Source: an uncultured Anaerolineae bacterium (GTDB taxonomy: Bacteria; Chloroflexota; Anaerolineae; Fen-1058). From it: a stretch of DNA of 64,000 nucleotides. This document shows, piece after piece, positions 11,093 through 58,349 of this stretch (position 1 is the stretch's first letter; every line of letters begins with the position of its first letter). The stretch is taken from the NCBI GenBank assembly GCA_964353405.1, contig CAYGWJ010000121.1:2421-66420 (forward strand). Reading direction: 5' to 3'. The translations under genes were made by a program, and so were the position numbers. Below the pieces are notes generated by a model, which saw only the letters and a program-made list of their open reading frames with translations, searched no databases and was not told the DNA's origin.

Positions 11093-13216
11093 TTATGCCT
11101 GTGCGGCTTTTAACGCTCTGCGCTCCACACTCAACGCTTTGCGCTCTTCGGCGGCATCCGGCCATGCGGCTACCAGCGTGCCCAGGATAAACACCAGCCC
11201 ACCCAGCCACAGCCAGTTGACCAACGGATTGATGAACACCTTGAACGTCGCCAGCGAACCGTCACTTTCCCAACCGCCCAACAGAACGTACAGGTCTTCT
11301 TTCATCGAGCTGAGCAGCGCGGGCGGCGTCATCCGCTCTCCGTTTGTGTATTGCTCCTGGTAGGGACGCATCGTCGTCAGGAGCTTGCCATTCTGCGAAA
11401 CCTCCACGCGCGCCGAGACAATGATCTTGTCCGCCTGGCCCGAAGGCACCAACTCTAACTGCCGAAACGTGATCTGGTACCCGCCGATGGACAGCGACCG
11501 GCCGACGGACAGCGCCTGTTGCGTCTCTTGCTGATACAGATGCGTCCCAAGGATGCCCACACCCATCAGTACGATGCCGGCATGCACCAGGTAACCTCCA
11601 TAGCGCCGCCGATTGCGCCCGATGAGATTCCACAGCGCAACCGGCCAGCTTTCACCCGTGGACTTGTGCCGCGCGCGCACGCCGCGCGCGTACTCTGCCA
11701 CGATGATCACGCCCGCATAGATCACCAGCGCAAAGCCCAACAAAGCCGCCCAGTTGTGAATGCCCAGCACATAGATGATGACCACGGCCACCAGCGTGGC
11801 CGGGCCGGGGAGGTAAAGCGCGCTCTTGCCCAGCGCCTGAGGCGAAGCCGCTCGCCACGAAATGAGCGGCGCAATCCCCATCAGCAGCACAAGCGGAACG
11901 AGCAATGGACCCACCACGCTCTGATAGTACGGCGCGCCCACCGTGATCTTGTTGTCGGTGAACAACTCGGAGAAAATCGGAAAGTACGTGCCGATGGCAA
12001 CCGCCAGATTGACGATGAGGAACAAGGCATTCTGCGCGATAAAGGCCGCCTCGCGCGAAAGCAGACTATCGAGCTTGTTCTCGCTCTTGAGATCGTCCAG
12101 CCGAGCCAGCAGCAAACCGATCGAGCCGACCAGCATCACGCCCGTGAAGGCGAGGAACGGCACGCCGATGGACGAGCGGGCGAACGAGTGCACCGACGAG
12201 ATGACACCCGTGCGGGTGATGAACGTGCCGAGGATAACCTGCGCGAAGGTGAGAATGATGAGGAACATGTTCCACGTCTTGAACATCCCGCGCTTTTCCT
12301 GGATCATCACCGAATGCAAAAACGCCGTGCCGGAAATCCACGGCATGAGCGCGGCATTTTCGACCGCGTCCCAGCCCCAATAGCCGCCCCAGCCCAACAC
12401 GTCATACGCCCAACGCATTCCCAGCAAAAGACCGATGCCGAGAAACAACCAGGCCATCAATGTCCAGCGGCGCGTGGTGCGAATCCAGGCATCATTCGTC
12501 TTGCCGGTGATGAGCGCCGCCATTGCAAACGAATACGGGATCGTGAATCCGACAAATCCGAGGTACAGGAAGGGCGGGTGCGCGATCATGCCAGGATGAC
12601 GCAAGAGTGGAGCAAGTCCTTGTCCATCCAGAGGCGTATACGGCAGTGAGCCAAGCGGCGCGAACAAAGTCTGTGCGATACCCGAAAAGCCGATGCTGCT
12701 CAAAGTGCTGAACAAGCCGCTGGCGCCCAAGACGGCGCCGACAATGTCGCCCGTTGGCGTTTGCCACAACTTGGCAAAGGGATTCGCAAACAACACGACC
12801 AACGCGATAAAGAACGCTTGCGTGATTTCGGCGACGGCGATGACGTAAGCCATCAGGTCGCGGTTCTTGTCCCACTTGCGCGCCATCACACCCGCGACGA
12901 ACATTGACATCAACCACGACCAGAACAACAGCGATCCATTTTGTCCGCCCCATAAAGCCGTGATCTTTAATATCGCGGGCGTAGAAATACTGGTCACATG
13001 CGCGGTGTACTCGAGGCGGAAATTATTGGTGAGATTAGAGTAGATGATCAACAGTGCGGACAGCGTCAACAATGGAGTGATCACCAGCACTGCGTTGCGT
13101 GCGCTCTTGACCCAATCTTCCCGATGGCTCCGCGCGCCGTGTATCGCCGCCGCGATGGCGTAAACGCTTGCCACCAAAGCCAACAAGAGCGAAATCAATC
13201 CAATGTCGGTTATCAT
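11093..13216 (-). CDS. ccmF: Cytochrome c haem lyase subunit CcmF
   Basis: 707 aa polytopic protein with the WWD motif WGGYWGWDAVENAALMPW and conserved His residues. Confidence 0.9.
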   Translation of the reverse strand: MITDIGLISLLLALVASVYAIAAAIHGARSHREDWVKSARNAVLVITPLLTLSALLIIYSNLTNNFRLEYTAHVTSISTPAILKITALWGGQNGSLLFWSWLMSMFVAGVMARKWDKNRDLMAYVIAVAEITQAFFIALVVLFANPFAKLWQTPTGDIVGAVLGASGLFSTLSSIGFSGIAQTLFAPLGSLPYTPLDGQGLAPLLRHPGMIAHPPFLYLGFVGFTIPYSFAMAALITGKTNDAWIRTTRRWTLMAWLFLGIGLLLGMRWAYDVLGWGGYWGWDAVENAALMPWISGTAFLHSVMIQEKRGMFKTWNMFLIILTFAQVILGTFITRTGVISSVHSFARSSIGVPFLAFTGVMLVGSIGLLLARLDDLKSENKLDSLLSREAAFIAQNALFLIVNLAVAIGTYFPIFSELFTDNKITVGAPYYQSVVGPLLVPLVLLMGIAPLISWRAASPQALGKSALYLPGPATLVAVVIIYVLGIHNWAALLGFALVIYAGVIIVAEYARGVRARHKSTGESWPVALWNLIGRNRRRYGGYLVHAGIVLMGVGILGTHLYQQETQQALSVGRSLSIGGYQITFRQLELVPSGQADKIIVSARVEVSQNGKLLTTMRPYQEQYTNGERMTPPALLSSMKEDLYVLLGGWESDGSLATFKVFINPLVNWLWLGGLVFILGTLVAAWPDAAEERKALSVERRALKAAQA

Positions 13217-13298
13217 TCACAGCCTCCACACAAACAAAAACGTAAAACGCCAAGAGCTGACCCTTGCGTTTTACGCTCCACATCGTACGGTTCTACAC

Positions 13299-13733
13299 TT
13301 ATTTGCTGGCCGGTGTCGGAGTGGGGAGTTGGTCTTCGTAACGAGTAGGACACTTGAGCAGCAAGTTGCTGGCGACAAAGGTCCCATCAGAGTTGAGCTT
13401 GCCCTCGGCAATCGCCTGGGCCTCGTGCTGCAACAGGTCCGGCTTGGGGCCGGTGTAGAGAATCTTGAGCGAGTCCACCTTGACCGTTGAGTTCAGCTCT
13501 TCGTGAGTGTCCACGATATTGAAGGACAGTCTGGAAGCCTGCGGGTTGTAGGCAATCGTGTCGCCCATCACAAAGCCGGATACGCGCAAGCTGCGGCCCG
13601 TCATGGCCTGCCCCTTGTCGCGTACCTCTTTGACTGTGAGGTAATACTGGGCCGAGCTGGAAATACTTGACACAATCAAATAGACTACCGCGGCTGCCAC
13701 CACAATTCCACCGATCCAAAACTTGGCGCGCAT
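13299..13733 (-). CDS. ccmE: Cytochrome c haem chaperone CcmE, Cys variant (CxxxY instead of HxxxY)
   Basis: The likely start is MRAKFW at 13733, preceded by an AGGAGG Shine-Dalgarno. The protein has a single N-terminal TM and an OB-fold sequence. The haem-binding motif reads LLLKCPTRYEDQ. Confidence 0.8.
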   Translation of the reverse strand: MRAKFWIGGIVVAAAVVYLIVSSISSSAQYYLTVKEVRDKGQAMTGRSLRVSGFVMGDTIAYNPQASRLSFNIVDTHEELNSTVKVDSLKILYTGPKPDLLQHEAQAIAEGKLNSDGTFVASNLLLKCPTRYEDQLPTPTPASK

Positions 13734-13862
13734 AAGCCTCCTGCTAATGTGACCCATCACTTGCCGCAAGTTGCGGAAATCACATTGACTATACCACATC
13801 GGCAAACCTGTGTCAAAATGCTATTGTGACGGTTGACATCCCGGCCAATCTGCCTAGTTCAA

Positions 13863-13975
13863 ATGGGGGAACACCCCCATAAACTACGCATAAACATGAT
13901 ATATGTCACATCTTGTCACGTCAAATGTCACTTGGAATAGTGAATTCCGGTGCTATAATGGGGGCATTCCCCCAT
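13863..13975. promoter_or_regulatory. Divergent control region with two palindromes and a sigma70-like promoter driving rightward transcription
   Basis: Palindrome ATGGGGGAACACCCCCAT at 13863-13880 and ATGGGGGCATTCCCCCAT at 13958-13975. The promoter is TTGGAA (13932-13937), a 16-nt spacer, then TATAAT (13954-13959). The second palindrome overlaps the -10 box. Three TGTCAC direct repeats lie at 13904, 13914 and 13926. Confidence 0.5.
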
Positions 13976-14241
13976 AGGCATGGGGGTAAACCACGTACGC
14001 ACACGTAGTTTACTCGGTTAGATTCCCTGCAAACTGGGGAAAGCAACCGGTCTGGTGGACGCGGGTTGCAAATTGATGATAAAGGTGGCAAAACGTATGA
14101 CAAGAGGTTTGCCAGTCGTATGTCATGTTGGCGACTAGCAAACCAAAGGCAAGCCGAGTTTCTACGTTTCGGGGCGAAAGTCGCCCCCCTTTGTCTTCCG
14201 CACCAAACTATTGATTCAACCTGAAAAGGAAGGAAAGAAAA

Positions 14242-44961: not shown

Positions 44962-45281
44962 AGCACTCCTCCTAATGTCTGACACTCGAGAGGCAAATGA
45001 GAAGACGCTGCGGCGAGCTGATTCAGGCCAACAAAGTGAGACTGAAAGGGAAGTGGAAGAAAGACAAGATAAACCTGGGGAAAGTGCATGGCCTGCCACA
45101 CCGGGCGCACAGCAACGCGTGTGACCCAACTCGCAAAATTAGAGAATGGGTTTCCTGGTCACCAATCCTTCTAGAAGGATGCGCCTCTCTACTCTCATTA
45201 TATACCCGATGTCAAGTGTCTTTTTGGCCACTTTGACGGCTTGCAACCGGCTTACAGGGCTTTTTTCCTAACGCAATTCTA

Positions 45282-45443
45282 ACCATGAACAGGGAACAGA
45301 AGTGAACCGTACAATAGTACAAAACCTGTCAATACTTCGCTGGCCTTAAAGCTACAGTGGCCTTGGCTCGAGATCGGAAGACGACCGCCGGAATGGAGGT
45401 GCCAGCGGGCCAAGTCAGTTGATGTTTCCACTTTTCCGGTGTA
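45282..45443 (-). pseudogene. Decayed paralogous remnant of the alpha/beta-hydrolase C-terminal fragment
   Basis: Minus-strand translation ...ARWHLHSGGRLPISSQGHCSFKASEVLTGF aligns to ...AVRYSGIPILRYGHCNFKAAEVLTGF of 41546..41929. About 75% nucleotide identity over ~100 bp, with in-frame stops on both sides. Confidence 0.45.
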
Positions 45444-45578
45444 TCATTTCGCTCGTCGTACACTCTGTTGGTCCGCACATGACCGCGAGCACGTCTTGAG
45501 GGCACACTGCTCTCAGTTTTGACTTACACAACGGCGCGAGTGCCCATAGGCCGTTTAATCAGATGACAATGGAGGTAA

Positions 45579-49063: not shown

Positions 49064-50578
49064 TCAGCCCTCGCTGCTTACAATGCGATACACAGTGAAC
49101 GTCGGCTGGCCGCGACGGTCTTGCGTGGTCAGCACAGGCGACAACGCAGCCCCCTCGGCGGCAAGGGCACGCTGGATGCGCGTGGTGGATTCGCTGGCCG
49201 GGAAGACGATAAAGCGCGGCGAGGTCCGTCCAAAGACGTGCACGTCCTCCGCCAGGGCCTGCGGCGTAGCAAAGTAGGCCACATAGACCCGGGCATCCCA
49301 CAGGTAATAGCGCAGCGTCCAGCCCAGCCAGTGATCGTACACGACCGTGCCATACGGAAAGCCGTGCAGGTAATCAGCCACGTCGTCAATGCCATCGTGC
49401 GGCCCGTGGTCGCCGCCGACGGGAAGCTGGCTTTGCGCAGCCTGCACTGCCGGGAAAACCATCAGGGCAAGGACAAGCGCTACAGCCACACAGGCAGCCG
49501 CGCGCGGCGAACGCACCCACACCGCCAGCCCACTGACGAACAAACCCGCTAACCTTCCCACCAGCAAGCACATGACTGGCACAAGCCCAAAGATGTAACG
49601 ATCCCACACCGGGAATGCCAGCAGCCAGTGCAAAAACAAGTAGCCCAACGCGAATGCTATCAAGACCAAATCGAGCGCAGCCGCCCAGGTCCGTGCTGCA
49701 AGCGTCAAGTCGTAGATCAACAGCAACGGCAGGCCCATTGCCAGCACGGCGAGCAGCGGCCACCCGAAAAAGTGCGGCAGAAAACTCGCCCAGCCCATCA
49801 GGCGCGGCATCGCCTCGCCGGCATAGATGGTGCGGATGCCGCCATAGTTGATCGTCTGCTGAATCCAGAACGGCGTGCCGCCGCGCACTCGATCCCACGC
49901 GACAACACCGACGAGCGGAACCGTCAGCCCGAGCACGAATTTAACCGCCACGGCCCACAGACACTGGGATTCTTGAAAGGTTTTTGTCTGTGTATCTTGG
50001 CGAGAAAGATCAGCGATTATTCCGCAGGTCAAGACCAGCGGCAAAAAGATGAGCGCCTGAATTTTGGTCGCCGCCGCCAGCCCCAGAAACATGCCCGCCC
50101 AACCTGGCCGCCTGCGCGTCACGGCGACCAGCGACGCCAACGCGAACATTACCATCAGCGGGTCGAGGAACGCCGTCGGCGAGAATAGAATCGCCATCGG
50201 CGAAAGCGACGTCGCCATCGCGGCAAGACCAGACCTGACAGGCTTGAGAGGCCTGTCAGGTCTCAATTGCCACATCAACGCCACACTGAGCACGCCCGCC
50301 ATCAAACCGATCAGCCGGGCGGCGACCTCGGTATGCCCCAAAATAAAGAACGCCACTGCCATCAGGTAAAACAGCAGCGGCGGTTTATCCGGCGCGGCCC
50401 AAGCCAGCAGCCTGTCGCGCCCGTAGGCAATCGCCAGCGCCCACGACGCATACAGCGCCTCGTCGGAGTGAAAGCGATTCGCCCACAGCGGCCCCAGCCG
50501 CAGGCCAAACGCCACCCAGCACAACAGAAGGGGCATTATCCAGGACAGCCGGTGTTTTCTGCCCTGTGCGTCCTGCAT
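49064..50578 (-). CDS. GT39/GT83 ArnT/PMT-family membrane glycosyltransferase
   Basis: 504 aa polytopic protein. The N-terminal ...RFHSDEALYA... matches the DE motif region of ArnT/PMT-type enzymes. Confidence 0.7.
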   Translation of the reverse strand: MQDAQGRKHRLSWIMPLLLCWVAFGLRLGPLWANRFHSDEALYASWALAIAYGRDRLLAWAAPDKPPLLFYLMAVAFFILGHTEVAARLIGLMAGVLSVALMWQLRPDRPLKPVRSGLAAMATSLSPMAILFSPTAFLDPLMVMFALASLVAVTRRRPGWAGMFLGLAAATKIQALIFLPLVLTCGIIADLSRQDTQTKTFQESQCLWAVAVKFVLGLTVPLVGVVAWDRVRGGTPFWIQQTINYGGIRTIYAGEAMPRLMGWASFLPHFFGWPLLAVLAMGLPLLLIYDLTLAARTWAAALDLVLIAFALGYLFLHWLLAFPVWDRYIFGLVPVMCLLVGRLAGLFVSGLAVWVRSPRAAACVAVALVLALMVFPAVQAAQSQLPVGGDHGPHDGIDDVADYLHGFPYGTVVYDHWLGWTLRYYLWDARVYVAYFATPQALAEDVHVFGRTSPRFIVFPASESTTRIQRALAAEGAALSPVLTTQDRRGQPTFTVYRIVSSEG

Positions 50579-50597
50579 CTTGCCTCTTGCTTCTTGC

Positions 50598-51278
50598 TCA
50601 ATCTACACAGCGATACTTGAGCAGCGTCCACAGCACCACGAACCCATCGTGCCAGGAGATCTTTTTGCCTTCGTAAAACTCGCGGCCATAATACGAAATG
50701 GGCACCTCAAAGATGCGATTGCCACGCTTGAGCACCTTGGCCGTGATCTCAGGGTCAATTCCCCAACGGTCCGATTTGATGTTCAGGCCTTTAGCTATGT
50801 CGGCACATAGCACCTTGTAGCCGGTCTCCATGTCGCTCAAGGTGGTATCGAACAGGATGTTGGTGACAAGCGTGAGAAATTGATTGCCAAGCCAGTGTGT
50901 GAACAGCATATCCTTGCGCGGGCCGATAAAGCGCGATCCATAGACGACTTTGACACGGCCCTCCACGATAGGGCGAATCAGAGTCGGGTAATCACGAGGA
51001 TCGTACTCAAGGTCGGCGTCTTGAATGATGACAATATCGCCCGTAAAGCGCTCCAGACCGCTCCGTACTGCCGCGCCTTTGCCTCGATTGCGGTCGTGCA
51101 AGACGAGCGTCACATCGCCTTTTTGCTCTTCTTCCTTCAAAATCTCGCGCGTGCCGTCGGTCGAAAAATCATCCACCACGATGATCTCGTTCACCAGGTT
51201 CACCGAACGCACCTGCGCCAGAATCTGGCGGGTGGTCTCCTTCTCGTTGAATACCGGCATGATGATGGACAGTCTCAC
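50598..51278 (-). CDS. GT2 polyprenyl-phosphate sugar transferase (Dpm1/GtrB/ArnC-like)
   Basis: LSIIMPVFNEKETT...VVDDFSTDGT...IQDADLEYDP, giving the DxD motif and GT-A fold signatures. Confidence 0.85.
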   Translation of the reverse strand: MRLSIIMPVFNEKETTRQILAQVRSVNLVNEIIVVDDFSTDGTREILKEEEQKGDVTLVLHDRNRGKGAAVRSGLERFTGDIVIIQDADLEYDPRDYPTLIRPIVEGRVKVVYGSRFIGPRKDMLFTHWLGNQFLTLVTNILFDTTLSDMETGYKVLCADIAKGLNIKSDRWGIDPEITAKVLKRGNRIFEVPISYYGREFYEGKKISWHDGFVVLWTLLKYRCVD

Positions 51279-51364: not shown

Positions 51365-52156
51365 ATGGAACTTGGCGAAGCACTGGGCATCCAACCGGGC
51401 GATATGGCCGCGTTCGTCGGCGCGGGTGGCAAGACCACGTCCATCTGGCGCATTCAAGGCGAGCTCGCCACACAAGGCTTGCGCTCTATCCTGACGACGA
51501 CGACCAAGATCATGGAGCCGGTCATGCCACCTGACGGCGCGTTGATGCTAACAGCCCGGCCCGACGCCGGCCGCGTAGGCGCTCTACTTGACCGCGCGCC
51601 GCGCCTGGCATTGGCCTCGCGCCGGTTGGACGAGCCGTATCCTTGCCACGCCGACCACCCCGTTCCATCGCGTCCGTACAAAGTGGATGGCCTGCCAACC
51701 GAGACGCTGAACGAGCTTGTCAGGCAATGGCCGGGCGTTACCTGGCTGGTCGAAGCCGATGGCGCCAAGGGCTGCGGCCTCAAGCTGCCCGCCGCTCACG
51801 AGCCTGTCATTCCAGGTTGCGCGACCATCGTCGTGGTCATGGCGCACCTCGATGTGCTAGGCTGTCCTCTCGATGAGACGACCGTGCATCGAGTGACTGA
51901 TGCAACGCGTGCACTGGGCGTGCCCGTCGGAACGCCGCTCGCGCCTGCGATGTTTGCCCGCGTGCTGACGGATGATACGCTGGGATTCAAGGGCATTCCC
52001 CACCGAGCGCGCGCCGTCGCATTGCTCACACAGCGAGGCCCAACACTACATGCGGATGCCCTCGCGCTGGCCGAGGCGCTTGGCGCGCGCTACAGTCGTG
52101 TCGTCATCGCCGCGTTGCGCGCGGACAAGCCAGTCTTGCAGGTCAGGATACAATGA
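51365..52156 (+). CDS. yqeC: Putative selenium-dependent molybdenum hydroxylase accessory protein YqeC
   Basis: N-terminus AFVGAGGKTTSIWRI plus the WLVEADGAKG pattern of the YqeC (TIGR03172) family. Confidence 0.65.
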   Translation: MELGEALGIQPGDMAAFVGAGGKTTSIWRIQGELATQGLRSILTTTTKIMEPVMPPDGALMLTARPDAGRVGALLDRAPRLALASRRLDEPYPCHADHPVPSRPYKVDGLPTETLNELVRQWPGVTWLVEADGAKGCGLKLPAAHEPVIPGCATIVVVMAHLDVLGCPLDETTVHRVTDATRALGVPVGTPLAPAMFARVLTDDTLGFKGIPHRARAVALLTQRGPTLHADALALAEALGARYSRVVIAALRADKPVLQVRIQ

Positions 52157-53553
52157 GCGAGCAACCGGTCGCCGCGATGATCCTGGCCGCTGGCGCATCC
52201 GAGCGGTATGGCCAGCCCAAGGCCCTGCTTGACTGGAACGGCCAGCCGCTCATTGCGCACATCGCGCGAGCGGTGCTGGCCTCACCCGCGCGGCCTGTTG
52301 TCGTCGTGCTGGGCGCGCACGCGGAAGAGATTCGCCCGGCGCTGAATGGCTTGCCGGTTCACATCGTCGTCAATCCAAACTGGCGCGATGGCATGAGCGC
52401 GTCCATTCGCGCAGGACTGGCTGCGCTGCCCAACGGAGCTCGCGCTGTGTTGTTCGTCATGGGCGATCAACCGGGCATCACGCCTGACCTGGTCGAGTCG
52501 CTCATCGCCCAGTTCCGCGAGACGGGCGCGCTCATCGTCGAGCCGCGCTTCCGCGACCAGCCCGGCACGCCGACGCTGTTCGCTTGCCAGATGTTCCCAG
52601 AATTGATGCAACTCACGGGCGACCGGGGCGGACGTCCGCTCATCAACAAATATTCTGACCGCGTGGCCGTTGTTCAAGTGGGCGACCTCGCCACGCTGAA
52701 AGATATTGACACTCCTGAGGATTACAAAGAACAAATGTCAAATTTCAAATCCCAAAAAGAAGAGTTGAACAAGATTCGCGCCGTCGTGAGCGATATGGAT
52801 GGCGTGCTGTGGCGCGGCGACAAGCCGATGCCGGGGCTGATCGAGTTCTTTGCGTTCCTGCGCGAGCGGGACATTCACTTTATCCTGGCAACGAACAATG
52901 CCACGCGCACCGCCAGGCAATACGCCGACAAGCTCGCCAGTCACGGCGTGACGGTATCAGAGGCCGAGATTCTGCCGTCGTGCGATGTGGTTTCAGATTA
53001 TCTCGTCACGATCGCCAAGCCGGGCGCGCGTGTGTTCGTCGTGGGCGAAGCCGCCTTGGCCGATAGCCTTGCGGCGCGCGGCTTTGTCATCAGCCAAGAC
53101 GAAGCCGAGTTTGTTGTGGCCGGGCTGGATCGCCAGGTCACCTACGCCAAGGTTGCGCACGCCACGCGCCTGATTCGCAACGGCGCACAATTCATCGGTA
53201 CCAATCCCGACAAGACCTGGCCAAGCGAGACCGGCGTGACGCCCGGCGCGGGTGCAGTTCTGGCCTTTATAGAAGCCGCCACCGATGTCAAGCCCTTCAT
53301 CGTCGCCAAGCCGGAGCCGGTGATGTTCCAGCAGGCGCTCGCGCGGTTGGGCACTCGGCCCGAAGAAACAGTCATGATCGGCGACCGGCTAGAGACCGAC
53401 ATCGAGGGCGGCCATCGCGCCGGGCTCAAGACCCTCCTGGTGCTTTCGGGCATCAGCACTGAGGGGGACGTCGAACAGACTGGCATCCGCCCGGATTGGA
53501 CCTTCCGCGACATTGGTGAATTGACGCTGGTGTGGCGAAAGCTAGTTGGATGA
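52153..53553 (+). CDS. Fusion of molybdenum cofactor cytidylyltransferase MocA (N-terminal) and a HAD-IIA NagD-like phosphatase (C-terminal)
   Basis: N-terminal MobA-like nucleotidyltransferase region (AMILAAGASERYGQPKALLDW...VMGDQPGITPD). C-terminal HAD motifs (VVSDMDGVLWRG, ...GDRLETDIEGG...). Confidence 0.75.
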   Translation: MSEQPVAAMILAAGASERYGQPKALLDWNGQPLIAHIARAVLASPARPVVVVLGAHAEEIRPALNGLPVHIVVNPNWRDGMSASIRAGLAALPNGARAVLFVMGDQPGITPDLVESLIAQFRETGALIVEPRFRDQPGTPTLFACQMFPELMQLTGDRGGRPLINKYSDRVAVVQVGDLATLKDIDTPEDYKEQMSNFKSQKEELNKIRAVVSDMDGVLWRGDKPMPGLIEFFAFLRERDIHFILATNNATRTARQYADKLASHGVTVSEAEILPSCDVVSDYLVTIAKPGARVFVVGEAALADSLAARGFVISQDEAEFVVAGLDRQVTYAKVAHATRLIRNGAQFIGTNPDKTWPSETGVTPGAGAVLAFIEAATDVKPFIVAKPEPVMFQQALARLGTRPEETVMIGDRLETDIEGGHRAGLKTLLVLSGISTEGDVEQTGIRPDWTFRDIGELTLVWRKLVG

Positions 53554-54626
53554 ACAAGCCCGCAGCTTTACTTGATTTGAGCTTGGACGAACTGCAGAAC
53601 CTGTTTCAATCCTGGGGCGAGCCGCCTTATCGCGCCAAACAAGTCTGGAGCAGGCTCTACCAAAAGCTGGCCGCGTCCTATGATGAGATGACAGAGCTTT
53701 CCAGAGCGCTGCGCGAAAAGCTGGCGCAAGAGACCGTCATCGGTCGGCTCACGCCGCGCGCCGAGCAGCGCTCGTCGGACGGGCAGACGCGCAAGCTTCT
53801 CTTTGTCCTGCCCGATGGCGCGCAGGTCGAGTCAGTGCTGATGAGTTACGAGCGCCGACGCACGACGTGCATCTCCACTCAAGCGGGTTGTGCGATGAAC
53901 TGCTCGTTTTGCGCCACAGGCCAGGGCGGCTTTCAACGCAACCTCACCTCTGGTGAGATCATCGAGCAGGTTCTCTTTTTCGCCCGCGAGCTTGCCATCT
54001 CCAATCCCCAATCTCCCATCTCCAATATCGTATTCATGGGTATGGGCGAGCCGTTCGCCAATTACGATCAGGTCGTGGCCGCCGTCCGCCGACTCAACGA
54101 CCCGCAAGGGTTCAACTTGGGCGCGCGGCGGATGACCGTGTCCACCGTGGGACTGGTGCAGGGTATCCGAAAGCTGGCGAGCGAAGACATCCAGATCAAC
54201 CTGGCCGTGTCGCTCCATGCGGCAACCGACGAGTTGCGCAATCAACTGGTGCCCATCAACAAGCGGTACCCACTGAGTGAAATCATGTCCGCCGTGCGCG
54301 AGTATATCGAACGGACACATCGTCGCGTGAGTTTTGAGTGGGCCCTCATCGAAGGAGTGAACGACACGCCGGAACAGGCCCACGCGCTGGCACAACTGAT
54401 CAAGGGAATGCTGTGTCACGTCAACCTGATTCCGCTCAACCCGACGAGCGGCTACCCCGGCGCGGCTTCGACGCGTGAGCGCATCGCGGCGTTTCGTTCC
54501 ATTCTAGAGTCGGCCAACATTCCCAACACGCTCCGCCTGCGGCGCGGGATAGATATTCAAGCGGGTTGCGGACAACTTCGGCAAAGGGTCAACTCACCAA
54601 TGAGAAACGGGTCAGTTAGCAAATGA
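53550..54626 (+). CDS. rlmN: 23S rRNA / tRNA m2A methyltransferase RlmN (radical SAM)
   Basis: CAMNCSFCATGQ radical-SAM cluster motif and conserved N- and C-terminal RlmN regions. The ATG at 53550 overlaps the upstream stop (ATGA); an in-frame ATG at 53532 is an alternative start. Confidence 0.85.
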   Translation: MNKPAALLDLSLDELQNLFQSWGEPPYRAKQVWSRLYQKLAASYDEMTELSRALREKLAQETVIGRLTPRAEQRSSDGQTRKLLFVLPDGAQVESVLMSYERRRTTCISTQAGCAMNCSFCATGQGGFQRNLTSGEIIEQVLFFARELAISNPQSPISNIVFMGMGEPFANYDQVVAAVRRLNDPQGFNLGARRMTVSTVGLVQGIRKLASEDIQINLAVSLHAATDELRNQLVPINKRYPLSEIMSAVREYIERTHRRVSFEWALIEGVNDTPEQAHALAQLIKGMLCHVNLIPLNPTSGYPGAASTRERIAAFRSILESANIPNTLRLRRGIDIQAGCGQLRQRVNSPMRNGSVSK

Positions 54627-54762
54627 TCTGGCTCACGTCGCCTTCGAGGTGAAAACGCCCAAAATACGGACGAAAAGAGGCCGATTTCACCTCTGAGGCC
54701 ATATGATCTAATGATCTAAAGAGTGGAATGGTATTTCCATAACAATACGCTAATTTTATATC

Positions 54763-54792
54763 TTGACAAATGATACTATATTTGGTACTATA
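54763..54792 (+). promoter_or_regulatory. Sigma70-like promoter for hicA, with flanking 8-bp direct repeats
   Basis: TTGACA (54763-54768), an 18-nt spacer, then TACTAT (54787-54792). TACTATAT occurs twice (54774-54781 and 54787-54794). Confidence 0.5.
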
Positions 54793-54815
54793 TATCATGA
54801 AGATGGCAGCATACA

Positions 54816-55070
54816 ATGAGCAAAAAAGAGAAGCTAGTCCAAAAAATCAGGAACAACCCTAAAATAGTCTCATTTGAGGATTTGGACAGCGTCCTTACTT
54901 GGTATGGTTTTGTCAAGCGTTCATCCAGCTCGGGAACCAGCCATGTTTACTACACATTGGGTGTCTATCAAATATCGGTTCCCTACAGACGCCCGCATGT
55001 CAAAGCGACCTATGTCAGACAAGTGTTGGACATCCTTGACCAGATTGATGAAGAACAAGAGTTGCTCTAG
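54816..55070 (+). CDS. hicA: HicA-family type II toxin (mRNA interferase, YcfA-like)
   Basis: 84 aa. ...GFVKRSSSSGTSHVYYTL...VPYRRPHVKATYVRQVLDIL matches the HicA GSH motif and C-terminal pattern. It lies directly upstream of a HicB homolog in a low-GC island. Confidence 0.6.
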   Translation: MSKKEKLVQKIRNNPKIVSFEDLDSVLTWYGFVKRSSSSGTSHVYYTLGVYQISVPYRRPHVKATYVRQVLDILDQIDEEQELL

Positions 55071-55110
55071 TCTGGTGGACTTGTTCGGCATACGCTGCTC
55101 GTAAAGGTGT

Positions 55111-55977
55111 TTGAAGATGATCGAACGAAAAGATCTCTATTATTATCTCTCTTTGCCTTACACGATTCAATTGATTCGGGAAGACGAAGAAACATGGTTT
55201 GCCCGTGTGGTCGAATTACCAGGTTGCATGACAGAGGGGGATTCGGCACAAGAAGCGGCCGAGATGATTCTCGATGCAATGACAGGCTGGATCGAAATCT
55301 CTTTGGAGGATGGGCGCGCCATTCCCGAACCCCGTCCTACTGAAGACTACAGCGGCAAATTTCTAGTGCGTCTGCCGCGCTCTTTGCATCGGGAATTGGT
55401 GCAGGCGGCTGAACGCGAGAGAGTCAGCCTGAATTCATTTGTTAACGCGTCTTTGGGACGAGCAGTGGGGCAGCCACCGACTCGCAAGCCAGAGAAAACA
55501 TCAGTCGGTGATGCCAGGCCGGCATGGCCGCGGTTGAGCGAGGCGGCGCGCAAAGCGATGTTGGATGCTGGCTGCGAGGTCGAAGCGCAAGAGATCAACG
55601 AACAACTCTTTGCAAACTGGGTAGAGCGAAATATTGAAGATGTGCAAGCGACTCTGGCGAGTGGGCATTTTCAAGATGCTGCCGCGCGCCTGGAACGACA
55701 TCTGATCGAGTTACAGACCGCGGGCGAGGCCAGCCCGCTGATGGGCGTGTTTTGCCGACTGCTATCCCTATTGCGTACTCAAGTTGAACAAAACGCGCAG
55801 TTGCGCATCAGTTTGGTGAACCAGGTTCTGAATCAAGATCAAATCATGGCGCGTGCTTATGCCCAGGTATCAACCACCTTGCCGGTGCAAGAGCCAAGAG
55901 AAGTAACATACTCGGCTTTTGGACACGAGTGGGCACAATCCATGGAAGACTCGCTCAAGAAATGGGGAGCGCGATAA
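55111..55977 (+). CDS. hicB: HicB-family antitoxin with a ~170-aa C-terminal extension
   Basis: N-terminal HicB/UPF0150 fold (YTIQLIREDEETWFARVVELPGCMTEGDSAQEAAEM). RHH motif GKFLVRLPRSLHRELVQAAERERVSLNSFV. The 170-aa tail has no recognisable domain. Confidence 0.65.
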   Translation: MKMIERKDLYYYLSLPYTIQLIREDEETWFARVVELPGCMTEGDSAQEAAEMILDAMTGWIEISLEDGRAIPEPRPTEDYSGKFLVRLPRSLHRELVQAAERERVSLNSFVNASLGRAVGQPPTRKPEKTSVGDARPAWPRLSEAARKAMLDAGCEVEAQEINEQLFANWVERNIEDVQATLASGHFQDAAARLERHLIELQTAGEASPLMGVFCRLLSLLRTQVEQNAQLRISLVNQVLNQDQIMARAYAQVSTTLPVQEPREVTYSAFGHEWAQSMEDSLKKWGAR

Positions 55978-57512
55978 TGGCCGATACACCCATTCCAGTT
56001 TCGGAAAGCTTGAAGCGCGTCAATGCGGCCCTCGCGTTGCGCGAGATTCCGGATTATCCTGCGGCGTTGGCGCAACTGGCGCTTTCGCTTCAGGCTGATC
56101 CCCGCAATGCCGTGGCGCAGTTGCTTTTGGGTCTGACCTATCAGGATTTGGGTCATCCCCAACTGGCTCAGGCCTGTTTTGCCCAGGCGCTTGAGCTAGA
56201 GCCTGACTCGGCTCAAATCCGGCAAGCGTATGGCCTGTTCCTAATTCGCCATGCAGAATACCAGGAGGCGATGGCGTTAACCACTTTCCTCTTTGAGCAT
56301 GACAAGCACGAATCGGCACTGATACAGAGATTCGCCTCCGCGTTTTGGGAGGCCGATCAAGTGGATGATGCTATTGATCTCTTGTGGCAAGGTCGTGAAC
56401 AATGGCCGCAAGATGCCGAAATCGCCAGGCGTCTCGCGCACTTTTTGGCAGAAGTTGAAAAAGTTGACGAAGCAATTGCAGTCTTGGAAAACATTGCGGA
56501 ATTATCGCCCAATGTTGATGGCTTGTTTGACTTGGCTTCCCTGTATGCGCAGAAAAAAGATTATGCCTCGGCCGTCAAGCCACTCCGGCGGGCAGGGCAA
56601 CTAGAACCAAACAATGTGCGACCTTGGTTGGAATTATCTGAGTGCTATTTCAATCTGGATGATTATGAGCAAGCGATTGCTGCAGCCGATCAAGCACTTC
56701 AGCGTGATCCCAACAACTTTGCTGGCTGGATGAGCAAGTGGGGAATACTAGCCTCGCTGTCCCAAGCTGATAAGAGTTACCTTGCGAGTCTGGATGAATC
56801 GCTAGAGAATGGAATCCACGCTCTAATGTCTGTTGCTGACAGGCAAAAAGCATTGTATCGGTACAGTCTGTATCGCTGGCTTGATTTTCGTGATCGCAAT
56901 GTCAACAGTTCTGCCGCTGATTTGGCTGCCGGAGCATGGATGACGCGACACTTTAAAGATTTTGACAATTTGGGGTTCTTTCCAACTTGTGAAGAGAACT
57001 GGCAACGGGCGAAAGACCTGCTCACATTGGTCAAGCAACATGGATTAGGCGATCCGGCAATTGCCGACGCCAATTTGGGGTACATCTATCTCCGCCAGCA
57101 AGAGTATGAACTGGCCCTGGAAGCATTGCGCGCTGCAATCCAGGAGGCTCACCAGGACTCGATGGCGCTCCTCCATGAAGCCGCGTGGATCAATGGCGAT
57201 TTTTCAAGGACTAAAGTCGAGCGGTTTCCACATCGCTTGACACCAATTCGGCTAGTTGCGCTGTCGAATCTGGCAACGGCCTACTGGCTCAGTGGTAAGC
57301 CTGAAGCGGCGTTTGAGACGATTCAAGAAGCGATTTCAAGTGTGCCCCAAGATAACATCGGTTATCGTGTTTCCGGTTGCTTGCGCCTAGCGCAGGGCGA
57401 GGTCGAACTAGCCCGCTCAGAGTGGGAAAAGGCATTCAACTTGGCTGAAGACGAACAAGAGGCCGCACTGATTGAAGGCTGGTTAGCCACCTTGCCGCCT
57501 GTCCAGAAATAA
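55977..57512 (+). CDS. TPR-repeat protein
   Basis: Multiple TPR-like helical repeats (AxxxYxxALELEP...). The ATG at 55977 overlaps the hicB stop (TAATG); the ORF-track start at 55929 is the alternative. GC content is lower than the window average. Confidence 0.65.
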   Translation: MADTPIPVSESLKRVNAALALREIPDYPAALAQLALSLQADPRNAVAQLLLGLTYQDLGHPQLAQACFAQALELEPDSAQIRQAYGLFLIRHAEYQEAMALTTFLFEHDKHESALIQRFASAFWEADQVDDAIDLLWQGREQWPQDAEIARRLAHFLAEVEKVDEAIAVLENIAELSPNVDGLFDLASLYAQKKDYASAVKPLRRAGQLEPNNVRPWLELSECYFNLDDYEQAIAAADQALQRDPNNFAGWMSKWGILASLSQADKSYLASLDESLENGIHALMSVADRQKALYRYSLYRWLDFRDRNVNSSAADLAAGAWMTRHFKDFDNLGFFPTCEENWQRAKDLLTLVKQHGLGDPAIADANLGYIYLRQQEYELALEALRAAIQEAHQDSMALLHEAAWINGDFSRTKVERFPHRLTPIRLVALSNLATAYWLSGKPEAAFETIQEAISSVPQDNIGYRVSGCLRLAQGEVELARSEWEKAFNLAEDEQEAALIEGWLATLPPVQK

Positions 57513-57671
57513 GAACAAGCTGAACTTGCGCCGTTTTTGTGTATGTAGTAACGGCGCTTTTGTTTGTGGGAGAACGGTTGTACTTCACCGAATACCTGCA
57601 CGAGTCTCCTAATCACAGAGTAACTGATTGACTGATTGCTGATACCAGTGTATTATCTAGCCGGTCAGAAC

Positions 57672-57705
57672 AAAAAAGCGCCAGCCCTCGGTCAAGAGCT
57701 GGCGC
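57672..57705 (-). terminator. Rho-independent terminator of rpmB
   Basis: On the minus strand, stem GCGCCAGC / GCTGGCGC with a 12-nt loop, followed by TTTTTT. Confidence 0.7.
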
Positions 57706-57723
57706 GCGGACGCAAAAACCGGA

Positions 57724-57909
57724 TTATTTACTGACTTTGGTCAGCGTCTTGAGGCAAGACGTGCAAACGTAAACCTGGCGCGGCTGGCCCTCAACGTAGA
57801 GGGTGTGCTTTTGGATATTCGGCTTGAACATCCGATTGGTCGCGCGTTTGGAATGGCTCACGTTATGCCCAAAAGAGGGGCCTTTGCCGCAAATTTCACA
57901 CTTGGCCAT
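57724..57909 (-). CDS. rpmB: 50S ribosomal protein L28
   Basis: [34 protein letters not shown]... Confidence 0.9.
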
Positions 57910-57992
57910 TGCTGTTCACCTTCCTTTGATTTCATTAGAGCGGCAAGATGATACCACGAGAGCCGATTTGATGCAAACCGTACGAGGTTCCC

Positions 57993-58349
57993 ATGTCTGA
58001 AGAAACCCAACTGGGCAAAATCGAAATCTCGCCCACGGCGATTGCCACACTCGCCGCGCAGGCTGTCCTGCAATCCTACGGCGTGGTGGGCATGGCGCCC
58101 AAGCATCTAGGCGACGAACTGATGACGGCGCTGGGCGACGCGGCCCATCGCGGAGTACAGGTTCGAGTGGATGGCGACCATATTCAGATTGACCTGTACG
58201 TCGTCGTCGAGTACGGCACGCGCATCTCGTCGGTGGCCCACAGCATCATGAACGTCGTCAGGTACAACGTCGAGCGGGCGCTGGGAGTGCAAGTCGCGCA
58301 AGTGAACGTCCACGTGCAAGGTTTGCGCGTGAGCAATCCCGATGTTTAG
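57993..58349 (+). CDS. Asp23/Gls24-family stress protein
   Basis: 118 aa with the Asp23-family sequence pattern (GKIEISPTAIATLAAQAVLQSYGVVGM). Confidence 0.8.
   Translation: MSEETQLGKIEISPTAIATLAAQAVLQSYGVVGMAPKHLGDELMTALGDAAHRGVQVRVDGDHIQIDLYVVVEYGTRISSVAHSIMNVVRYNVERALGVQVAQVNVHVQGLRVSNPDV

Follow-up and report, generated by a model that had tools for sequence, protein, structure and literature searches.

The hicA-hicB-tpr cassette

A cassette of three intact, co-directional open reading frames lies between rlmN and rpmB in the genome of an uncultured Anaerolineae bacterium of the phylum Chloroflexota (assembly GCA_964353405.1, contig CAYGWJ010000121.1). The 64,000-nt stretch of this contig that was analysed is termed the window, and all coordinates refer to it (Table 1). 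The first gene encodes a divergent HicA-family protein, the second an extended HicB antitoxin with an additional C-terminal domain, here termed the C-domain, and the third a tetratricopeptide repeat (TPR) protein. With the promoter and the terminator hairpin included, the operon unit spans positions 54763-57566. The three-gene layout and its place between rlmN and rpmB are as described in a first-pass annotation, which had been made from the nucleotide sequence alone. The comparative data presented below suggest that the cassette is a tripartite toxin-antitoxin operon in which the C-domain and the TPR protein form an accessory pair.

Table 1. Features of the hicA-hicB-tpr locus and its borders (positions in the window).
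Feature	Position	Strand	Properties and basis
rlmN	53532-54626	+	left flank of the cassette
Long hairpin	54629-54710	+	directly after the rlmN stop codon; inverted repeat; fold -28.8 kcal/mol, z = -3.7; no U-run
Operon promoter	54763-54791	+	-35 TTGACA 54763-54768, 17-nt spacer, TG-extended -10 TACTAT 54786-54791
Putative HicB operator	54771-54793	+	candidate site for the ribbon-helix-helix (RHH) of HicB; direct repeats TGATACTATAT and TGGTACTATAT, 12 nt apart, over the spacer and the -10
hicA/extended hicB/tpr operon	54816-57512	+	three intact co-directional open reading frames
hicA	54816-55070	+	84-residue divergent HicA-family toxin, putative mRNA interferase; family alignment
HicB core	55111-55476	+	HicB fold, residues 1-~70; RHH, residues ~84-120; Pfam, PDB, Foldseek, AlphaFold2 (AF2)
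hicB-ext	55117-55977	+	286-residue extended HicB, ATG at 55117; database copy P0001 also has 286 residues
HicB C-domain	55525-55878	+	residues ~139-256; conserved; proposed TPR docking domain
tpr	55977-57512	+	511-residue cytoplasmic all-alpha TPR protein; Pfam TPR families, AF2
Terminator-like hairpin	57528-57566	+	ends the operon; GCGCCGTT, 14-nt loop, AACGGCGC, then TTTTGTTTG
rpmB	57724-57909	-	right flank of the cassette

By family-level alignment, the product of the first gene is a divergent member of the HicA family. The window open reading frame on its own has no match in Pfam (even at E = 10), NCBIfam or PADLOC, and a phmmer search of the PDB returned nothing useful. Its homologues, which were found by phmmer with E values down to 1e-34, lie directly upstream of hicB in 74 of 86 loci, and 45 of the 48 that were aligned match PF07927 (HicA_toxin), with a best E value of 2.4e-12. 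A profile built from the family matches PDB entry 1WHZ, the Thermus HicA-family protein TTHA1913, at E = 8.4e-5. His43 is invariant in all 48 sequences, where it is part of a G-[TS]-S-H motif (G40-T-S-H43 in the window protein), and it aligns with the His of 1WHZ. In the HicA of Burkholderia pseudomallei, toxicity requires Gly22 and His24 (PMC3969222). The identification as hicA made in the first-pass annotation is thus upheld, and the catalytic His, the absence of which was to speak against it, is retained throughout the family. An N-terminal extension of about 18 residues is also conserved and is specific to this clade of HicA proteins. The window copy is a putative RNase toxin, for which the dsRBD-like alpha-beta-beta-beta-alpha fold of HicA proteins would be expected, and its toxicity would follow from these family features.

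The longest open reading frame of hicB begins with TTG at 55111 and encodes 288 residues, and the ATG at 55117 is the most likely start; HicB residue numbers given here follow the 288-residue frame. PF15919 (HicB_lk_antitox) is matched by residues 17-80 (6.8e-9) and PF05534 (HicB) by residues 70-113 (1e-12). The extended HicB sequence also matches the PDB HicB entries 6U0I and 6HPB at ~5e-4, and the top Foldseek matches of its model are HicB structures, the N-terminal fold of which is of a partial RNase H-like kind. The AF2 model of the core has strands within residues 19-43, a helix at 46-67 and helices at 90-102 and 107-120, with per-residue confidence (pLDDT) values of 91-98. The last two are the RHH helices, and they come after a strand segment that reads FLVRLP. 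A HicB fold, an RHH and an uncharacterised C-terminal domain had been proposed for this protein, and all three are present and conserved as a family. The RHH had been placed within the N-terminal fold, and this part of the proposal needs amendment, as the motif follows the fold at residues ~84-120.

The C-domain and its TPR partner

The window HicB continues for approximately 165 residues beyond the RHH. The C-domain displays an invariant WPxLS motif and the motif DExLFAxW, and these are followed by a helical bundle with helices at residues 164-183, 187-207 and 209-256. The AF2 model of the extended HicB has an overall pLDDT of 80; the linker at 123-137 is disordered, the segment 138-163, which opens with the invariant Trp of WPxLS, is of low confidence, and residues 164-256 are modelled confidently (~90). 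A Pfam match of the HicB C-terminal 175 residues to ZYG-11 was rejected as spurious. Extended HicBs of 280-300 residues constitute a sizeable family that is nearly confined to Chloroflexota, where it is found in Anaerolineae, Caldilineae, Ardenticatenia and Thermoflexia.

Short HicBs of 120-200 residues have neither the extension nor a tpr gene, and share 60-69% identity with the window HicB over its first 122 residues. In a neighbour-joining tree of HicB N-domains the long forms are scattered among the short ones; this tree is a rough one without support values, in which one close relative (L001) is oddly placed, and it gives a hint that the extension may have been gained or lost repeatedly. 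A contig from a metagenome-assembled genome labelled Nanoarchaeota (L086, JAHIMK010000097.1) has a short, Chloroflexota-type hicB, the product of which is 55% identical to the core of the window HicB. Rather than an archaeal form of the gene, this is probably contamination from binning.

The third gene is joined to hicB by a TAATG overlap of stop and start codons at 55975-55979, as had been noted in the first-pass annotation. The product that starts at this ATG has 511 residues, in agreement with the 512 residues of its orthologues; the 527 residues given previously belong to a frame that begins at an upstream GTG. Pfam matches of the protein are to TPR families only, and its AF2 model has a pLDDT of 85.6. 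The model consists of about eight TPRs at residues 10-284, a flexible linker at 310-329 and a C-terminal TPR array at 342-504. A reading of the sequence reveals no N-terminal hydrophobic segment, and the Foldseek matches of the model, among them OGT and designed CTPRs, are all TPR superhelices of a generic kind. Memberships in PADLOC PDC-M71B and in MamA, PilW and similar families were considered and rejected, since the similarity is at the level of the repeats and far under the family cut-offs. In the case of PDC-M71B only residues 190-247 are matched, to model positions 126-183 and out of register (E = 5e-10), and with HicA and the extended HicB matching no PADLOC model, a PDC-M71A partner is not seen in the cassette.

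The association between the C-domain and the TPR protein was assessed in hicAB loci that were evaluable and non-redundant, taken from 185,579 species-representative genomes and from metagenome contigs. A TPR orthologue is found directly downstream in 14 of 18 loci that have the C-domain vs none of 58 loci without it (Fisher p = 4.5e-12, a value that ignores kinship between loci). Three of the four C-domain loci without an adjacent tpr gene have truncated C-domains. The hicA-hicB-tpr gene order and its overlaps are kept in 14 independent loci, and a start-stop overlap between the antitoxin gene and tpr is seen in the window and in L001, L006 and L088. Because of this distribution together with the C-domain, the TPR protein is counted as a part of the system.

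The two parts also appear to diverge together. Across 11 modules, pairwise identities of the C-domain and of the TPR protein are correlated with r = 0.90 (0.84 when the closest pair is left out), which is the best value of all pairs of parts. Corresponding values are 0.78 and 0.65 for the HicB N-domain vs the TPR protein, and 0.62 and 0.37 for HicA vs the TPR protein. The C-domain and the TPR protein are the fastest-evolving parts of the cassette, with a mean identity of 31% vs 60% for the HicB core. The correlation comes from a small, non-independent sample and is suggestive of linked evolution. Several cassettes are decayed: in L028 and L058 the TPR protein is shortened to 347-349 residues, and in L008, L015 and L035 HicB has 167-252 residues, the C-domain is truncated and there is no tpr gene. 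This pattern suggests that the two accessory parts are lost together.

The C-domain is not limited to HicB. When 1.84 billion representative proteins were searched with the HicB C-terminal 163 residues, 29 clusters were obtained in total, most of which are extended HicBs; two others (P0181 and P0196) are apparent gene-calling chimeras or repeats and were excluded. In three proteins of 504-549 residues (P0183, P0185 and P0187) the C-domain is found behind an XRE-type helix-turn-helix (HTH) and a middle region that resembles an ImmA/IrrE peptidase with a degenerate HExxH motif. One of these HigA-like proteins carries the Joint Genome Institute (JGI) name 'addiction module HigA family antidote'. 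In all three contigs (L087, L088 and L089) an overlapping open reading frame of 112 residues precedes the HigA-like gene. Its products have a Pfam E value of 0.009 to HigB and their top six PDB profile matches are all HigB, which is a weak but consistent signal. A TPR protein of 605-609 residues follows the HigA-like gene in all three contigs. Against a profile built from TPR partners of the HicAB type alone, these proteins score 514-516 bits, with positions 4-605 of 610 matched, vs 74-116 bits for unrelated TPR open reading frames. Thus, with the C-domain and end-to-end TPR orthologues present in two unrelated antitoxin families, HicB and HigA-like, the two make up, by sequence comparison, a portable, two-part accessory unit that is combined with two different toxin-antitoxin cores.

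The HigBA-type cassettes adjoin genes of bacteriophage exclusion (BREX) systems, which encode a PglX-type methyltransferase, DUF499 and PglZ. In the contig JBFONA010001349.1 (GCA_040960995.1; L089:1926-11051) the cassette lies between a 354-residue gene of the PglX N-terminal type and a 644-residue gene that represents the C-terminal two-thirds of PglX (PADLOC E = 2.6e-113), and PglZ follows. Either insertion of the cassette has interrupted a BREX methyltransferase gene there, or PglX is naturally split with the cassette between its halves. That the three genes might form a three-component toxin-antitoxin or defence-like module had been offered as a guess in the first-pass annotation, with co-occurrence as the proposed check. 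The joint occurrence of the C-domain and the TPR protein, and the recurrence of the pair on HigBA-type modules beside BREX, support it.

Control signals, base composition and insertion site

The operon promoter is the best promoter-like site in the region 54500-58000, with 10 of 12 positions matched. Close relatives (L001, L002 and L090) have it unchanged, and it can still be recognised in distant members of the family. The TTGACA and TACTAT elements and the duplicated boxes reported previously are present; the spacer between the two elements has 17 nt and not 18. The boxes, which have the form TG[A/G]TACTATAT, lie at 54771 and 54783. Of the 74 family loci, 29 have a relaxed version of this tandem, TAYYRT-N6-TAYTAY, at a fixed position upstream of hicA, and the pattern is present 11 times elsewhere in 1.45 Mb. 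The tandem repeats are unchanged in close relatives although the surrounding spacer diverges. This phylogenetic footprint constitutes good comparative evidence for an operator and agrees with an earlier guess to that effect; the most simply envisaged ligand would be the RHH of HicB.

The terminator-like hairpin that ends the operon has a U-run after its stem and a fold of -18.6 kcal/mol (z = -2.7). It is missed by a simple terminator scan because its loop is longer than 8 nt. On the opposite strand, at 57678-57705, rpmB has a strong intrinsic terminator, with a 12-bp stem that contains eight GC pairs and is followed by a T-run. As the rpmB terminator faces that of tpr, the convergent tpr and rpmB units are insulated from each other. 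The tpr-rpmB spacer also has a promoter-like sequence on the forward strand (TTGACT-17-TATTAT, 10 of 12 positions, at 57628-57656) that is oriented antisense into the 3' end of rpmB. L001, in which the spacer between rlmN and hicA is shorter, does not have the long hairpin that follows the rlmN stop codon. This hairpin, which may or may not belong to the cassette, could terminate rlmN or serve as an insulator at the left insertion edge.

The cassette (54816-57512) has a GC content of 51.8%. Elsewhere in the window, 556 segments of the same length have a mean of 60.4%, a standard deviation of 1.7 and a minimum of 55.6%, and the anomaly of about five standard deviations is real. The GC content at third codon positions (GC3) is 54% in hicA, 55% in hicB and 53% in tpr, vs 72-75% in rlmN, asp23, fakA, degV and the mobA-HAD gene, and the spacer upstream of hicA (54627-54815) has 39% GC. 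Related cassettes are GC-poorer than their own flanks in 13 of 14 other loci. A low-GC island had been noted at this place, and sliding GC and codon analysis agrees with it, in that the cassette is outside the normal variance, its GC3 is lowered and the upstream spacer is AT-rich. The average GC content of the window was given as 62-65%, which is too high; the measured value is 59.9%. The window has further patches of 50-55% GC at 1-1000, 13001-14000, 45001-45500 and 50501-51000.

The occupancy of the rlmN-rpmB site was compared in 80 loci obtained from a metagenome scan in which the RlmN of the window was the query. In L090, a close relative with 84% RlmN identity, hicA-hicB follows rlmN, and in L001, with 78-85% protein identity, the whole cassette is found at the identical site. 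More distant relatives, with RlmN identities of 53-62% to the window, include six loci (L105, L119, L123, L135, L137 and L141) with the order rlmN, rpe (~0.8 kb), rpmB on the reverse strand, asp23 and fakA. The distance between rlmN and rpmB is only ~100-190 nt in two others (L102 and L144). In all of these distant relatives hicAB and tpr are absent from the site. The slot that holds rpe in the six loci holds hicAB-tpr in place of rpe in the window.

Cassettes in other genomes are found in different surroundings. In L003-L005 the flanking genes encode a beta-lactamase-like protein and a D-Ala-D-Ala carboxypeptidase, and in L006 the cassette adjoins DUF559 and lysW. With a deviant composition, empty sites in relatives and cassettes in unrelated neighbourhoods, a horizontally acquired insertion into a conserved housekeeping neighbourhood is supported, as the first-pass annotation had supposed. 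No direct or inverted repeats of at least 9 nt were found at the two edges of the island, and no tRNA or mobility gene was found beside the cassette in the window. On the 5' side of rlmN, a YqeC-like gene and a 466-residue MobA-like nucleotidyltransferase/HAD phosphatase fusion overlap end to end (51365-53553), and the adjacency of the MobA-HAD gene and rlmN is kept in most related loci.

Relation to known systems and possible function

The nearest known systems are the class 4 hicAB modules, in which hicA comes first and HicB carries an RHH at its C terminus, neutralises the RNase and acts as a repressor at its own promoter (bioRxiv 10.1101/2023.12.08.570793). The HicA/HicB core of the cassette would be expected to act likewise. 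Solved HicAB examples include those of E. coli (6HPB) and B. pseudomallei (6G26). The cassette shares with class 4 the hicA to hicB order, an N-terminal HicB fold followed by an RHH, promoter repeats fit for autorepression and the HicA Gly/His motif. It differs from class 4 in that HicB is about twice the usual length, with a helical C-domain after the RHH, and in the presence of a coupled third gene. In addition, the window HicA falls short of Pfam thresholds and has at its N terminus an extra segment that is conserved. None of the 14 HicA contexts or classes in the survey by Gerdes has a third gene or a TPR partner (bioRxiv 10.1101/2023.12.08.570793). PADLOC 2.0 has no model for this type of HicA or extended HicB, and no description of a TPR protein as third component of a toxin-antitoxin system was found in open-access papers and bioRxiv.

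Toxin-antitoxin-chaperone (TAC) systems offer the nearest known parallel for the C-domain and the third gene. They consist of HigBA, MqsRA, HicAB or CmdTA together with a SecB-like chaperone that recognises a ChAD extension of the antitoxin (PMC5105189; bioRxiv 10.1101/2024.02.24.581848). ChAD/SecB pairs can be grafted as modules and are found on HigA, MqsA and HicB antitoxins (PMC5105189). In at least one TAC system the chaperone also binds, and so senses, a phage protein; this protein competes with ChAD, by which the toxin is triggered (bioRxiv 10.1101/2024.02.24.581848). The cassette resembles TAC in the order of toxin, antitoxin and accessory gene, in a C-terminal antitoxin extension that has no counterpart in two-gene relatives, and in a Trp-containing motif at the start of this extension. 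Also as in TAC, the extension and accessory protein are found on more than one antitoxin family, and some members are in defence contexts. However, the accessory protein here is a TPR solenoid of 510-610 residues and not SecB. The extension has ~120-150 residues, is conserved across families and is mostly predicted to be folded, whereas ChAD has ~30-45 residues and is variable and aggregation-prone. With these two defining features not shared, the cassette might work like a TAC system but would not be one.

The sister cassettes L087-L089, as distinct from that of the window, also show a likeness to known defence genes. P0183 and P0187 match PD-Lambda-2_B, the gene B product of PD-Lambda-2, in PADLOC (E = 1.5e-9 and 1.1e-8), and P0187 matches RmrA of Rosmerta as well. 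PD-Lambda-2 and RmrA proteins, which combine an XRE-HTH with an ImmA/IrrE-like region of the COG2856 type, differ from these antitoxins in having no C-domain and, according to the PADLOC models, no TPR partner.

The cassette is best explained, with rather more confidence than doubt, as a horizontally acquired, self-contained tripartite type II toxin-antitoxin operon in which the C-domain and the TPR protein would act as ChAD and SecB do in TAC. HicA, a divergent RNase toxin, would be neutralised by the N-terminal HicB fold, and the RHH of HicB would repress the operon via the two TACTATAT repeats that overlap the -10. The helical C-domain of ~120 residues would dock the coupled TPR protein, which in its bound state would keep the HicB antitoxin stable and active. 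The antitoxin would fail if the TPR protein were titrated away or altered, most plausibly through the binding of a protein of phage or stress origin in its groove, and the freed HicA would cleave RNA and lead to growth arrest. That the TPR protein binds the C-domain, in which direction control runs and what serves as the trigger are proposed here by analogy. More tentatively, and as a possibility that falls short of being probable, the pair may represent a second, SecB-independent class of plug-in sensor. In that case a phage protein would displace the docking domain from the TPR groove and set off a triggerable abortive infection, with some of these modules residing within BREX loci. If this is true, an arms race would underlie the rapid joint evolution of C-domain and TPR protein.

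Several observations weigh against the tripartite interpretation. The window HicA is below every library threshold on its own, and hence is possibly attenuated. One locus (L016) has a full-length C-domain HicB and no neighbouring tpr gene, and the co-occurrence and mirror-tree statistics, which come from 11-18 loci, are uncorrected for shared ancestry. The length, conservation and fold of the C-domain differ from those of ChAD, and a strict chaperone addiction is not implied. HicAB-type cassettes occupy ordinary neighbourhoods and not defence islands, and the link to defence comes from the three HigBA-type loci and not from the window cassette. Furthermore, a search of 2.9 million viral contigs for the extended HicB returned only short HicBs.

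A role of the TPR/C-domain pair in transcription is a less likely explanation, albeit one with some claim to attention. As a co-repressor or anti-repressor, possibly one that senses a ligand or peptide as RNPP-type TPR receptors do, the TPR protein would alter the occupancy of the tandem operator by the RHH of HicB, and the third gene would tune an otherwise ordinary hicAB module. In the HigA-type antitoxins, however, some 350 residues separate the N-terminal HTH from the C-domain, and a geometry of DNA control common to both antitoxin types is not obvious. A transcriptional role is compatible with the model of antitoxin stability and sensing. Improbable, by comparison, is a TPR adaptor that promotes toxin activation by bringing HicB to a protease, or HicA-HicB to the ribosome or the RNA degradosome. 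TPR proteins do serve as protease co-factors, with LbcA-CtpA among the Foldseek matches, and the fast evolution of the accessory pair would fit such a role. But it would be costly for a cell to co-express, constitutively and with translational coupling, an activator of the toxin that it makes; TAC systems are a precedent for the opposite (PMC5105189), and no protease gene linked to the cassette was found among the HicAB-type and HigBA-type loci inspected.

The lack of a Pfam, NCBIfam or PADLOC match for the window HicA, and the maintenance of the cassette at an identical site in relatives with 78-85% protein identity, could also signify a decaying or domesticated remnant. HicA would then be inactive, and the extended HicB and TPR protein would have a regulatory role that has nothing to do with control of a toxin. 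This appears doubtful in view of the invariant His43 and G-x-x-H motif, the intactness of all three open reading frames in the window and its relatives, and the position of hicA upstream of hicB in ~74 of 86 loci; the truncated variants L028, L058 and L015 look unlike the window copy. Strongly disfavoured is a reading of the tpr gene as an unrelated passenger and of the HicB extension as merely an oligomerisation tail. TPR proteins are indeed abundant and generic, and structure searches return generic TPR proteins only. The co-occurrence in 14 of 18 vs 0 of 58 loci, the start-stop overlap, the full-length TPR orthology across HicAB and HigBA types and the correlated divergence all oppose it.

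Tripartite toxin-antitoxin systems are known mainly with SecB-type chaperones, where the third component is a phage sensor. If the tripartite interpretation of the cassette is correct, the addition of a sensor or stabiliser to a toxin-antitoxin core would have evolved more than once, and the C-domain and TPR protein would provide a new transferable module for conditional toxin switches. To our knowledge, there is almost no experimental work on toxin-antitoxin systems in Chloroflexota, and the cassette would be a first functional handle on the toxin-antitoxin biology of this phylum.

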